This document shows positions 8,196 through 53,896 of a stretch of DNA of 64,000 nt, in pieces (the first letter of the stretch is position 1; every line of letters begins with the position of its first letter). The notes below the pieces were generated by a model, which worked only from the letters and a program-made list of their open reading frames with translations, did no database searches and had not been told where the DNA came from. The stretch is from assembly GCA_964016885.1 (NCBI GenBank), contig OZ024764.1:20150001-20214000 (forward strand), written 5' to 3'. Source of the DNA: Eledone cirrhosa. Its lineage: Eukaryota. A program made the position numbers and the translations under genes.

Positions 8196-9314
8196 ATGTC
8201 GAAAAATATAGTAAAATCACCATTCCACTGTGATATCTGTGGTAAATCATTCTCTAAAAGTACTAAATTAACTAGACACAAACTAAATCATACAGAAGAG
8301 AAGCCAAATCACTGTGATATCTGTGGCAAATCATTCTCTCATAGTAATCACCTAACTACTCACAAACGTATTCATACAGGAGAGAAGCCTTATAAGTGTG
8401 ATATCTGTAACAAATCATTCAGTCACAGTAGTAGCGTCAGAGTTCACAAACAAATTCATACAGGAGAGAAGACACATCACTGTGACATCTGTAGTAAATC
8501 ATTCTCTTGCAGATATAGCTTAACTAATCACAAACATATTCATACAGGAGAGAAACCATATCACTGTGACATCTGTGGTAATTCATTCTCTCAGAGTAAT
8601 AACCTAACTACTCACAAACATATTCATACAGGAGAGAAACCATATCACTGTGACATCTGTGGTAAATCATTCTCTCAGAGTCATCACCTAACTACTCACA
8701 AACGTATTCATACAGGAGAGAAACCATATCATTGTGACATCTGTGGTAAATCATTCTCTCATAGTCATAACCTAACTACTCACAAACGTATTCATACAGG
8801 AGAGAAGCCTTATAAGTGTGATATCTGTAACAAATCATTCAGTCAGAGTAGTAGCGTCAGAGTTCACAAACAAATTCATACAGGAGAGAAACCACATCAC
8901 TGTGACATCTGCGGTAAATCATTCTCTGACAGAAGTAGCTTTGTTAAACACCATCGTATTCATACAGGAGAGAAACCATATCACTGTGACATCTGTAGTA
9001 AATCATTCTCTGACAGAAGTAGCTTTGTTAAACACCATCGTATTCATACAGGAGAGAAGCTATATCATTGTGACATCTGTGGTAAATCATTCGCTGACAG
9101 AACTAGCTTAGCTACCCACAAACGTACTCATACAGGAGAGAAGCCATATCACTGTGACATCTGTGGTAAATCATTCTCTCATAGTAATACCTTAGCTACC
9201 CACAAACGTACTCATACAGGAGAGAAGCCATATCCCTGTGACATCTGTGGTAAATCATTCAGTGACCGTAGTAACTTAACTACCCACAAACGTACTCATA
9301 CAGGAGTACTCTGA
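8196..9314 (+). CDS. Tandem C2H2 zinc-finger protein, 13 fingers, no effector domain (ZNF-A)
   Basis: 372 aa with 13 CxxC-x12-HxxxH repeats and TGEKPY linkers. A partly deleted 14th finger follows at 9307-9360. Confidence 0.9.
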   Translation: MSKNIVKSPFHCDICGKSFSKSTKLTRHKLNHTEEKPNHCDICGKSFSHSNHLTTHKRIHTGEKPYKCDICNKSFSHSSSVRVHKQIHTGEKTHHCDICSKSFSCRYSLTNHKHIHTGEKPYHCDICGNSFSQSNNLTTHKHIHTGEKPYHCDICGKSFSQSHHLTTHKRIHTGEKPYHCDICGKSFSHSHNLTTHKRIHTGEKPYKCDICNKSFSQSSSVRVHKQIHTGEKPHHCDICGKSFSDRSSFVKHHRIHTGEKPYHCDICSKSFSDRSSFVKHHRIHTGEKLYHCDICGKSFADRTSLATHKRTHTGEKPYHCDICGKSFSHSNTLATHKRTHTGEKPYPCDICGKSFSDRSNLTTHKRTHTGVL

Positions 9315-9631
9315 CAGTAGTACCTTAACCAAGCATGTGTGTATTCATACAGAAGTTTAGCTGTATCAATATCAAACTCATTACATCATACTACAACAAC
9401 AACAACAACAATTGTGTAGATCCATCATCCTTGCTAAAACTGGGGATAACCTTGTAGGTTTTACCTATGACAGAGATCATAAACACCAGGTTTCCATTTT
9501 TGAAGCAGTGTTTGAAGATTTTGTGTAAATTAAAGTTTTTCACATTAAACTTTGATTTATTATACTTTAACAGGTAAGATATATATTTGTATTTTTAGTA
9601 AAGTTGGGAACTTCTGTAATTTAAACCTGCC

Positions 9632-9637
9632 AATAAA
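9632..9637 (+). terminator. Candidate polyadenylation signal of ZNF-A
   Basis: AATAAA followed by a GT-rich tract (ttttgttgttg), conserved at ~28835 and ~54162. Confidence 0.4.
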
Positions 9638-9937
9638 ATGAAAACTTTTGTTGTTGCTAGTCTGACATTGATTTTAATTCTATTGTCCTGTACATTGTCT
9701 CAAATATCACAGATTAAACAGATTTTAACAATTTTAACAGGTCTTTTAGATTTCAACTTCCATCTACTGTACTATTCCATCACCAAGGCAACATTCATCT
9801 GGCTGGCAGCTTACATCAACTACAGATCTCATCAGTGGTTCACAACAGGCTGTCTGAAAGAAACTTCCAGATATCTTCTATGTCATAGCTATCAATCTCC
9901 TCCTCCTTATCATATGTATCATGTAGAACATCTCTGA

Positions 9938-10592
9938 ATTTATATTTAACAGGGAGATGTTTTACTGTCCCTACCCTTTTCTCTAGGTTGTCTTGTACCT
10001 CTCTCACAGTCCCTCTAGATCTTATATTTAACAGGGAGATCTTTTACTATCTCTACCCTTTTCTCTAGGTTGTCTTGTACCAGTCTCACAGTCCCTCTAG
10101 ATCTTATATTTAACAGGGATATCTTTTACTGTCCCTACCCTTTTCTCTAGGTTGTCTTGAGCCTCTCACAGTCCCTCTAGATCTTATATTTAACAGGGAG
10201 ATATTTTACTATCCCTACCCTTTTCTCTAGGTGGTGTTGTACCTCTCTCACAGTCCCTCTAGATCTTATAGTTAACAGGGAGATCTTTTACTGTCCCTAC
10301 CCTTTTCTCTAGGTTGTCTTGTACCTCTCTCACAGTCCCTCTAGATCTTATATTTAACAGGGAGATCTTTTAATATCCCTACCCTTTTCTCTAAGTTGTC
10401 TTGTACCTCCCTCACAGTCCCTCTAGATCTTATATTTAACAGGGAGATGTTTTACTGTCCCTACCTCTTTCTCTAGGTTGTCTTGTACCTCTCTCACAGT
10501 TCCTGTAGATCTTATATTTAACAGGGAGATCTTTTACTCTCCAACCCTTCTATCTCCAGATAGTCTTGTATCTGTCAGTCCCTCTAGATCTT
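9938..10592. repeat. 82-bp minisatellite (~8 copies)
   Basis: Unit agatcttatatttaacagggagatcttttactgtccctacccttttctctaggttgtcttgtacctctctcacagtccctct. About 1.5 copies in unit B (29105-29240) and deleted in unit C. Confidence 0.9.
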
Positions 10593-10869
10593 ACACCTAG
10601 TATCTAGTCTATGTTGAGTGGTACATCCTTCTCCAGTAAAGGAGTTAATATTCCCAACCATCTGTCTATCCTGTTTTCTGATGAGAATGAAGTCAATCTA
10701 GTTTATCTCTTCACCTGATTGAAGTAACTAGATCAAGTAACTAGATGTTTTCCTGTAAGTTAGTGTTGCAGTGTTTGGGTCACCATGTAAGGTTTATATC
10801 TATTAATATAGAGATGTAGTAAAGTTTTCACTGTTGTATCTCAATTTTCTAAATATCTTAATAATGTTT

Positions 10870-51105: not shown

Positions 51106-51109
51106 TTAA

Positions 51110-51317
51110 CCCTTTAGTATATAAACTGGCCATATCTGGCCAGACTTCTCCCACATCTTTCTGTTCAAACTGGCCGTAATTGGTCACTTATACTTATGTT
51201 AAGGTATTGTTCTCAAAATAAATAACATGAAAATCTCATAGATTTGATATTATGTGAGATAAAGCATTTACTGTGAAAATATAATAGTAAATATAGAGTA
51301 ATGTGAATACTAAAGGG
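51110..51317. mobile_element. piggyBac-type MITE (paralog)
   Basis: TTAA|CCCTTTAGTAT...ATACTAAAGGG|TTAA. Confidence 0.8.
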
Positions 51318-52239
51318 TTAATCTAATGTCACTAATAACTACTTTTATCTGTCAGTATAATCTAATGTCACTAATAACTACTTTTATCAGTCAGTTTAAT
51401 CTAACGTCACTATTAACTACTTTTATCAGTCAGTATAATCTAATGTCACTAATAACTACTTTTATCACTCAGTATAAGCTAATGTCACTAATAACTACTT
51501 TTATCAGTCAGTTTAATCTAATGTCACTAATAACTACTTTTATCTGTCAGTATAATCTAATGTCACTAATAACTACTTTTATCAGTCAGTATAATCTAAT
51601 GTCACTAATAACTACTTTTATCTGTCAGTATAATCTAATGTCACTAATAACTACTTTTATCTGTCAGTATAATCTAATGTCACTAATAACTACTTTTATC
51701 AGTCAGTTTAATCTAATGTCACTAATAACTACTTTTATCTGTCAGTATAATCTAATGTCACTAATAACTACTTTTATCTGTCAGTATAATCTAATGTCAC
51801 TAATAACTACTTTTATCAGTCAGTTTAATCTAATGTCACTAATAACTACTTTTATCAGTCAGTTTAATCTAATGTCACTAATAACTACTTTTATCACTCA
51901 GTATAATCTAATGTCACTAATAACTACTTTTATCACTCAGTATAATCTAATGTCACTAATAACTACTTTTATCACTCAGTATAATCTAATGTCACTAATA
52001 ACTACTTTTATCAGTCAGTTTAATCTAATGTCACTAATAACTACTTTTATCAGTCAGTTTAATCTAATGTCACTAATAACTACTTTTATCAGTCAGTTTA
52101 ATCTAATGTCACTAATAACTACTTTTATCAGTCAGTATAATCTAATGTCACTAATAACTACTTTTATCAGTCAGTATAATCTAATGTCACTAATAACTAC
52201 TTTTATCAGTCAGTTTAATCTACTGCCACTAATAACTAA
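51318..52239. repeat. 39-bp minisatellite (~23 copies)
   Basis: Same unit as in units A and B. Confidence 0.95.
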
Positions 52240-53200
52240 CCTATGTTAGGCAGCACATTCTTCACCAAGGAAGGCCTTAGTATTTATTACAGTCCATTTA
52301 TCAATATAGAAGTATTATATGAAATTTGTACTGATGTATTACAAGTTTCTGAGTATCTTATAATGTTCTTTTATTATTTCAGAATACCAGAGGACATTGG
52401 CATTAAAGAGCACGTTACATCAGACATATCCTCAACATTAACCATTTCTAATGAAAGACACTACCCATCATTTTCAAATAATTTTGAAAACATTAAACAC
52501 TTTGAAGGGATTTAATAATATAACTATATTTCTCAGTATTAAGCTGCTATTTGGAACATAACTTTGCACAATCTCATGAAGTTACAATGGAAAGTTTTTA
52601 GATAAATATAAAGACTGGTATGAAAAGGATAAAACACTTTTATATCAGTTGTTTCATCAACACCATTATTTAAAGACTAAAGGAAGCTGTTATACAGAAC
52701 AGATACAACCTTGTTTATATAAATCTATGGGAGAAATACTGGAAAATATTTCTTGTAAACTCAATAACACTTCTATTCTTTGCTGTCTGGAATATGTAGA
52801 AGATACAAAATAAAGCAGAAGAAATTTACACATGATTTTGTAAGATCTTCATATATTGACAAAGTTGATAGTAGATGGAACTACAGGAGTAGAAATATTT
52901 CCATTATTACAGGAATAACTAATGAAATAAAAACCAGAAAAATTAGATTCTTCATTGTCTGGAATTTGTACAAGATGATTTTATATGTATATTAAACTTG
53001 AAGAGATCTACAAAACAGTTTGTATCATCTTTAAATATAAAGAAAGACCAAAGTTGATGGAAATATATCTGGAGGAATATATTTTAGGAATAATATTATA
53101 AACATAAAGAAGAAAAATATCCATATATTGACAGGAGAAAAATATTAAAACTGTGAATTATGTGAGAAACTGAGGTGATTGATATCTTTTAGTAGGAGTT

Positions 53201-53896
53201 ATGTCGAAAAATATAGTAAAATCACCATTCCACTGTGATATCTGTGGTAAATCATTCTCTTGTAGTAATCACCTAACTACTCACAAACGTATTCATACAG
53301 GAGAGAAGCCTTATAAGTGTGATATCTGTGGTAAATCATTCTCTCATAGTCATAACCTAACTACTCACAAACGTATTCATACAGGAGAGAACCCATATCA
53401 TTGTGATATCTGTGGTAAAATGTTCTCTAAAAGTAATAACCTAACTACTCACAAACGTATTCATACAGGAGAGAACCCATATCATTGTGATATCTGTGGT
53501 AAATCATTCTCCCGTAGTGATAACCTAACTACTCACAAACGTATTCATACAGGAGAGAAACCATATCATTGTGATATCTGTGGTAAAATGTTCTCTAAAA
53601 ATAATAACCTAACTACTCACAAACGTATTCATACAGGAGAGAACCCATATCATTGTGATATCTGTGGTAAATCATTCACTTGTAGTCATCACCTAACTAC
53701 TCAGAAACGTATTCATACAGGAGAGAACCCATATCATTGTGATATCTGTGGTAAATCATTCTCTCGTAGTGATAACCTAACTACTCACAAACGTATTCAT
53801 ACAGGAGAGAACCCATATCACTGTGACATCTGTGGTAAATCATTCTCTCAAAGTTGTAACTTAACCAAGCATGTGCGTATTCATACAGAAGTTTAG
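53201..53896 (+). CDS. Tandem C2H2 zinc-finger protein, 8 fingers, finger 6 His-to-Gln (ZNF-C)
   Basis: 231 aa; many TGENPY linkers; keeps the terminal finger ...[11 protein letters not shown]. Confidence 0.88.

Follow-up and report, generated by a model that had tools for sequence, protein, structure and literature searches.

Three neighbouring C2H2 zinc-finger (ZNF) genes, here A, B and C, lie in a 64,000-nucleotide (nt) stretch of the Eledone cirrhosa genome (contig OZ024764.1, positions 20,150,001 to 20,214,000; the window). We consider it probable that they are tandem-block copies of one finger-only C2H2 gene and that, after the duplication, unequal crossover in register together with gene conversion rebuilt their finger arrays from an older, selected pool of recognition helices, with each array predicted to read different DNA.

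Three finger-only genes in tandem units

The three open reading frames (ORFs) lie on the forward strand and start at 8196 (A), 27204 (B) and 53201 (C); a six-frame pattern scan of the window found no finger array beyond them. Fingers are named by gene and number, as in A9.

8196..9314, forward strand: ZNF gene A, a 372-amino-acid (aa) ORF with a 9-residue leader and 13 C2H2 fingers, ending early via a 35-nt deletion
9307..9360, forward strand: out-of-frame remnant of the terminal finger (equivalent to B16 and C8), from the alignment
27204..28400, forward strand: ZNF gene B, a 398-aa ORF with 14 fingers and a TAG stop in the linker after finger 14
28407..28571, forward strand: B fingers 15 (second His lost) and 16 (the terminal finger), behind the stop
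53201..53896, forward strand: ZNF gene C, a 231-aa ORF with 8 fingers, finger 6 being without its first His

An earlier note on this stretch had described three ORFs with a common start and common flanks and with 13, 14 (plus 2) and 8 fingers, and we confirm these points: the first 10 codons are identical, the flanks are 2.7-3.1% apart and the counts are correct. The genes are of the poly-C2H2 (Kruppel) type, with tandem C-x2-C-x12-H-x3-H fingers and TGEKPY-type linkers, and Pfam scores for zf-C2H2 and zf-H2C2_2 in the ORFs are far over the cut-off. The 84-bp register is kept in all 37 finger units, and a single frameshift was seen. Gene A once had the terminal finger common to B16 and C8 and lost it by the 35-nt frameshifting deletion; zinc-binding histidines were lost in B15 (the second) and C6 (the first). 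None of the three proteins has an exact-sequence match in the protein collection searched, and the best identities among 120 listed of 798 matches are to Octopus (65%), a lizard (64%) and a coregonid fish (63%).

As the earlier note had remarked, no KRAB, SCAN or ZAD-like domain is visible. By Pfam, no KRAB/SCAN/ZAD/BTB-type effector domain was found in the three ORFs, in five read-through frames of the 5' part of the exon described below, or in 87 forward-strand frames of at least 45 aa between A and B, a search that might overlook shorter or unmodelled exons and that did not locate the first exon. The proteins would thus be bare DNA binders or recruit partners via their fingers.

In a masked self-comparison of the window, the common flanks proved to belong to larger tandem units, 22.1, 28.4 and 13.5+ kb in length (percentages give the part of a unit with a same-strand match of at least 90% elsewhere in the window):

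1..22102: tandem unit 1, with A; 70% matched
22103..50469: tandem unit 2, with B; 47% matched; like the C unit as far as about 37950, like the A unit beyond
50470..64000: tandem unit 3, with C; 71% matched; continues into the next unit at the window end

Over 1772 ungapped columns in four unique blocks, the flanks diverge by 2.71% (A-B), 2.99% (A-C) and 3.10% (B-C), and the private changes (23, 25 and 30) follow a star-like pattern. The 5' flank of B is without 607 nt that are present in A and C. The switch from C-like to A-like sequence near 37950 looks like an unequal-crossover junction between units.

Probable reshuffling and deletion in the finger arrays

Compared without gaps from finger 1 onward, the arrays of different genes are 16.5-19.7% apart. 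Finger types recur in changed order at the places given by the earlier note: HSSSVRV in A3 and B7, DRSSF in A9/A10 and B6, and KNNN followed by CS(Q/H)H in B10-11 and C5-6. The within-gene duplicates to which it had pointed are equally real, A9 and A10 differing at 3 of 69 nt and C4 and C7 at 1 of 69, and near-identical internal blocks span 158 nt in C (2 mismatches), 121 nt in A (1 mismatch) and 121 nt in B (2 mismatches). The 37 fingers carry 26 distinct fingerprints, and no adjacent fingerprint pair is common to any two genes. Within-gene finger identity is 78.6-86.7%, and the nearest neighbour lies in the finger's own gene for 17.8 of 37 fingers, a value that 117 of 2000 shuffles reach. 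In having recent tandem paralogs that have gained and lost fingers, the locus resembles lineage-specific tandem expansions of ZNF genes.

Simple deletions from one collinear ancestor had been named in the earlier note as the case that would speak against reshuffling. The B/C pair comes close to it: C is collinear with B over 498 of 666 nt (3.6% mismatch) if four in-register events are allowed, namely three skips in B, of 3, 4 and 3 units, and one gain of 2 units in C, and copying the whole of C from B leaves 6.0% mismatch when forced collinear versus 3.3% with free order. This pair is largely explained by collinear whole-finger deletions and one two-finger duplication. Gene A does not fit. At the same threshold only about 160 nt of A are collinear with B or C, and free copying from both other arrays leaves 86 mismatches in 1084 nt of A (7.9%; p = 1e-15), 73 in 1338 nt of B (p = 1e-6) and 21 in 666 nt of C (p = 0.44), each tested against 3%; 988 of the 1084 nt of A are copied best from other registers of A itself. 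Deletions from one short ancestor therefore fail for A, and given its short collinear stretch, a single ancestor would have to hold a good deal more than 25 fingers, with internal repeats that are nearly identical.

Linkage was analysed within the 84-bp unit for 33 of the 37 units (A1, A13, B16 and C8 were left out). The farther apart two sites of a unit lie, the lower is r-squared (rho = -0.29, a value reached by 1 of 2000 permutations), which points to chimeric fingers. Four-gamete site pairs make up 263 of 508, with a share that rises from 0.42 for near to 0.66 for far sites, to which recurrent mutation could contribute. In view of this decay, of the four-gamete pairs inside a unit and of the short collinearity of A, we hold it very improbable that one long collinear ancestor gave rise to all three arrays by simple deletion, even though the B/C alignment speaks for it, as do internal duplicates that are not significantly younger than the flanks. 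The suggestion in the earlier note that unequal exchange or gene conversion outpaces flank divergence stands in part: in-register exchange is seen within and between arrays, and the arrays are far more diverged than the flanks, whereas B and C are mostly collinear.

Finger A1 (8223-8306) differs from every other finger at 12 of 69 nt at least, and the bases just upstream of it match B and C. Fingers B1 and C1 resemble fusions of an A1-type start with an internal helix type.

Evidence on selection at the recognition helices

Helix positions are numbered here as is general knowledge for C2H2 fingers. The contact positions were taken to be -1, 2, 3 and 6, as used in the available text of PMC2604467 and PMC11703093; what we say below of published work likewise refers to the available text of each source. 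In a spanning tree built from the 37 finger cores, per-site nonsynonymous change amounts to 0.176 at contact positions and 0.035 in the framework, with synonymous change at 0.080 overall. A codon model with three site classes, a fixed tree and three frequency choices gives a ratio of nonsynonymous to synonymous rates (dN/dS, or omega) of 2.09-2.93 at contact codons (p <= 0.0003 against 1), 0.60-1.19 in the rest of the helix and 0.38-0.54 in the framework. When neutral contact codons were simulated with 0, 30, 70 and 100% chimeric replacement (300 runs each; mean distance 12.5-12.7 versus 13.7 observed), the observed spanning-tree ratio of 2.19 was reached in 0, 1, 0 and 1 runs, respectively, or 2 of 1200 in all. 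Among 22 close finger pairs, nonsynonymous changes are in excess at contact over framework positions (p = 0.0002), and private framework changes are under-represented (10 in 36.7 sites versus 10 synonymous in 13.7 sites). The tree-based tests indicate that the helix pool diversified under selection over a long time.

Four of the 10 private synonymous changes fall at position -1 itself, which fits whole-helix import rather than point selection, and nucleotide singletons number 16 nonsynonymous to 5 synonymous, as under neutrality (p = 0.59). The share of amino-acid diversity that falls at the four contact positions is 0.37 in A, 0.37 in B and 0.47 in C. The framework is less uniform than the earlier note, which called it almost invariant, had held: of 15 non-helix core positions, no more than 5 are the same in all 37 fingers.

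Likely exon structure and transcription

Splice contexts and sequencing run X4 indicate the likely exon of gene C, and the relic of a second gene lies behind gene B:

52383..54102, forward strand: likely single exon with ORF C, bounded by an AG acceptor and by a GT donor that lies 206 nt past the stop
29528..29960, forward strand: relic of a second, older ZNF gene, with an acceptor, a region like the 5' exon part of the main gene and one decayed finger

Gene A has the equivalent exon at 7381-9573, and B, in which the 607 nt are deleted, has it at 26998-28775. The AG acceptors are thus at 7381, 26998 and 52383 and the GT donors at 9573, 28775 and 54102, about 200 nt past the ancestral stop. The older relic is also present near 10885-11310, behind A, and is mostly deleted behind C, at 54426/54439.

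Four sequencing runs (X1, X4, X5 and X16) were compared with 52250-55550. In X4 (88 million letters), one record starts at acceptor 52383, preceded by 30 unplaced letters, and a joint leaves at donor 54102 and resumes in 33 letters that match 52951 onward, a motif that recurs at 29671 in the relic. This joint was not found in X1, X5 or X16. The record start at an acceptor and the joint at a donor, missing from the other runs, suggest that X4 is likely RNA and that the ZNF family is likely transcribed and spliced; lack of expression, which the earlier note had listed as evidence against its proposal, is not what the X4 joints point to. The older relic is likely used as a 3' exon of the live gene. 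Both the 607-nt deletion type and the full type occur in X4, and the B-type deletion is seen in three of the four runs. Run X16 yields nothing but short pieces of fingers (7-11 differences in 77-98 nt) and is uninformative for the locus.

The 5' part of the exon has an internal repeat of about 170 nt (52774-53117; 64% identity), and a similar block is conserved in the relic. These ZNF genes may thus have such a non-coding 5' repeat region as a trait of the family. We rejected as unshown the possibility that this part is a decayed N-terminal domain: no homolog was found, a word-indexed search of longer proteins giving 323 candidates and no match, Pfam no family and 1.84 billion representatives only three repeat-driven matches, while its first 43 codons had no usable Atlas match and tblastn with the 120 listed proteins gave none. 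A likeness of an out-of-frame leader to Octopus ZNF N-termini was not supported either: 27 comparisons were made, in one of which the best local score was reached by 11 of 500 shuffles, and a search for further leaders of this kind returned two proteins of one cluster type.

A copy-number lead

On unique flanks, the depth of single X1 contigs is 1148-2628; letters private to C keep about 6-22 by subtraction at three places, and several C-specific letters are absent from the X1 contigs. Run X5, labelled as another organism (35 differences in 1742 nt from C), has a flank depth of 4.4-8.8; in it the deletion type has a depth of 4.87 and the full type one of 4.36. Flanks give an X1/X5 depth ratio of 189-339, whereas generic finger bins, together with the last bin, give 1.3-3.9. 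Read as copy number, this would put one organism at roughly a hundred copies or more and a relative at about two; we treat it as a lead only, because contig depth is not copy number, the library types are not recorded and C-specific letters are absent from X1. Tentatively, and leaning against it ourselves, we raise the possibility that one ZNF gene was very recently amplified in a tandem unit of about 20 kb to at least 100 copies in one octopod lineage, with about two in a close relative, and that the copies would form an expressed combinatorial library, almost all of them with a finger order of their own drawn from a shared helix pool.

A high-copy repeat region and C-specific letters that are missing from X1 are also what would be expected if the array differences were assembly errors in a collapsed repeat. 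We regard this as extremely improbable: the differences fall on helix codons and keep the frame, each unit has insertions of its own, the 607-nt deletion recurs in three of four runs, and contigs drop rare variants.

Minisatellites and transposon remnants

The units also carry non-coding tandem repeats and mobile elements:

3506..7236: minisatellite of 39-bp units upstream of A, with 16.2 + 18.4 copies on the two sides of an insertion that bears reverse transcriptase
11885..12594: minisatellite of 48-bp units, 14.8 copies, downstream of A
42216..44572, reverse strand: long terminal repeat (LTR) retroelement remnant (RNase H, integrase), in unit 2 only, with 233-nt terminal repeats identical at 230 of 233 positions

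Elsewhere, the 39-bp minisatellite has 6.6 copies at 26597-26853 (unit 2) and 23.6 at 51319-52238 (unit 3), and the 48-bp minisatellite has 4.2 and 5.8 copies in unit 2 and 20.6 + 9.5 (30.1) in unit 3. A 62-bp minisatellite has 2.6 and 9.6 copies, and an 82-bp minisatellite likewise varies in copy number among units. Copy-number change in these non-coding repeats is at least as large as in the finger arrays, so that change in finger-array length needs no selection.

Transposon remnants, among them a Tc5/DDE_1 transposase piece and reverse-transcriptase pieces, are shared by the units, which also have unit-specific insertions. A reverse-transcriptase-bearing element inside the 39-bp minisatellite (4139-6519, unit 1 only) has a short AAT-type tail at its end. 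Behind B lie two related reverse-transcriptase elements (29975-32019 and 32615-34380), 77% alike and in opposite orientation, with GAT-repeat tails; an older relative is common to the units (686-1947 and 23737-25003). In unit 2, a 650-nt block (34407-35056 and 37947-38590) and the 48-bp minisatellite occur in two copies. An open frame of 150 aa without a Pfam match (20729-21491 and 62484-63680) adjoins the 62-bp repeat and may be a fragment of an IS1595/Merlin-type transposase. On the reverse strand at 58153-59541, fragments with a Spin-doc-type zinc finger match (PF18658, E 4.6e-06) suggest a hAT-like transposon remnant.

Weighing the evidence

Several observations weigh against a history of functional arrays reshuffled after duplication: (i) All three copies are damaged, A by a frameshift, B by a stop and a His loss, and C by a His loss. 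(ii) The distance within internal duplicates is not significantly below the flank divergence (p = 0.14 and 0.12), so that single duplicates cannot be dated to after the unit duplication. (iii) By minimum counts made without a tree, contact sites have 2.36 nonsynonymous changes each, versus 1.75 synonymous changes per site overall (p = 0.19). (iv) In the 22 close finger pairs, the comparison of nonsynonymous contact change with synonymous change gives p = 0.12. (v) Private codons show 8 nonsynonymous changes in 9.8 contact sites versus 10 synonymous changes in 13.7 sites, a ratio of about 1.1. (vi) Only 3 of 21 nucleotide singletons are nonsynonymous contact changes. (vii) There are 17 (A), 3 (B) and 13 (C) upstream ATGs, and the stop lies 206 nt ahead of the donor; upstream ATGs and a stop ahead of a junction could lower translation or trigger decay. 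(viii) The library kind of X4 is not recorded, and contigs cannot tie a transcript to one copy. The contrast in dN/dS between contact and framework sites, which the earlier note had proposed as a check, is accordingly borne out by the tree-based tests as a long-term excess and is not borne out by the tree-free counts or by the private codons, whose ratio is near 1. Selection on these three copies at present is unsupported by the data; selection looks old and reshuffling recent.

New arrays might also be under selection now, in an arms race with the young transposons around them; this, the strongest reading of the earlier note, would agree with a contact omega above 2, with the young retroelement insertions in the units and with the enrichment of predicted octopus ZNF motifs in transposon libraries (PMC10547256). 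Given private codons without excess over synonymous change and the failure to find an effector domain, we think it quite unlikely. Alternatively, the genes may be passengers in an unstable tandem array, subject to neutral minisatellite turnover, with a contact signal inherited from a functional ancestor and most copies decaying. Non-coding minisatellites that vary as much or more, damage in every copy, singletons that fit the site ratio, the many upstream ATGs, the downstream junction and the unit-specific retroelement insertions are all consistent with this explanation, to which we give a minor but real chance; the intact register of 37 units with one frameshift, the shortage of private framework changes and the spliced joints of X4 argue the other way.

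For the history that we prefer, copies of one gene with reshuffled arrays, the steps would be as follows. Whole units were duplicated in tandem and underwent star-like divergence of about 3%, and the 84-bp units are mosaics, with whole-finger insertions and deletions, internal duplications and switches within fingers, as the comparisons above show. Donors may include copies beyond the window, from which the poor fit of A to B and C would follow. On the statistical evidence, the helix pool would have had a contact-codon dN/dS above 1 over a long history, and recent change would be mostly reshuffling and birth-and-death decay rather than new selected point mutation. The family is presumably transcribed and may be high-copy in one lineage; translation, DNA binding and targets, transposons included, are putative only.

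Relation to known systems and significance

The mode of evolution is already known from mammalian and fish ZNF clusters, and this locus is a clean new example of it. In vertebrate poly-ZNF expansions (mammals, fish and frog), recent paralogs differ in finger number mostly by whole-finger deletion or duplication, with positive selection at -1, 3 and 6 (PMC2604467). Changes in finger number and inactivation of fingers by Cys/His loss or small indels are common to both, whereas gene conversion there was minor and filtered out, and the genes mostly carry KRAB, SCAN or BTB domains (PMC2604467); here, with flanks 3% diverged, mosaicism inside fingers is pervasive, and the search for an effector domain found none. 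Mouse KZFP clusters, e.g., on chromosome 4, are similar in their segmental duplications carrying transposons, in having mostly strain-unique fingerprint arrays and in the non-allelic recombination proposed for them (PMC11952569). They consist, however, of blocks of 3-7 KRAB genes whose paralogs often share fingerprint arrays (PMC11952569), whereas each unit here has one gene and a relic, and the three neighbours share no adjacent fingerprint pair. Cyprinid FiNZ-ZNF genes likewise form a large non-KRAB family, with adaptive change at base-contacting residues and proposed targeting of transposons, but they have a conserved 28-aa N-terminal exon (PMC10547256), and no conserved N-terminal peptide is demonstrable here. 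The parallel with PRDM9 that the earlier note had drawn extends to 84-bp units that recombine in register and to the contact share of C, which is near the 0.49-0.55 of active salmonid PRDM9 (PMC11703093). It fails on homogenisation and domains: no KRAB, SSXRD or PR/SET was found, fingers are 79-87% identical within a gene, and the contact share of A and B is 0.37. Moreover, these genes are a multi-copy family, unlike PRDM9, which comprises alleles of one locus.

Coleoid C2H2 expansions are also clustered and lineage-specific, and octopus-specific clusters of 104-495 sequences have been reported; the work describes gene counts, trees and expression rather than a duplicated unit, finger mosaicism or site-level selection (PMC9068888, PMC12513265). 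Our literature search, which covered the main text of mostly open-access papers, found no dissection of finger reshuffling in a cephalopod cluster. Cephalopod C2H2 expansions are known as gene counts, with the origin of new DNA-binding arrays not shown in the literature searched. At this locus the process can be seen at 3% divergence, and the rates of unit duplication, finger reshuffling and contact-residue selection, which are usually confounded, can be told apart. If the copies are decaying passengers, published cephalopod C2H2 counts would overstate the number of functional genes. Whether octopus ZNFs serve transposon defence or neural regulation is debated (PMC12988792), and if the depth hint is true, a species pair about a hundredfold apart in ZNF-unit copies would offer a direct test between the two.

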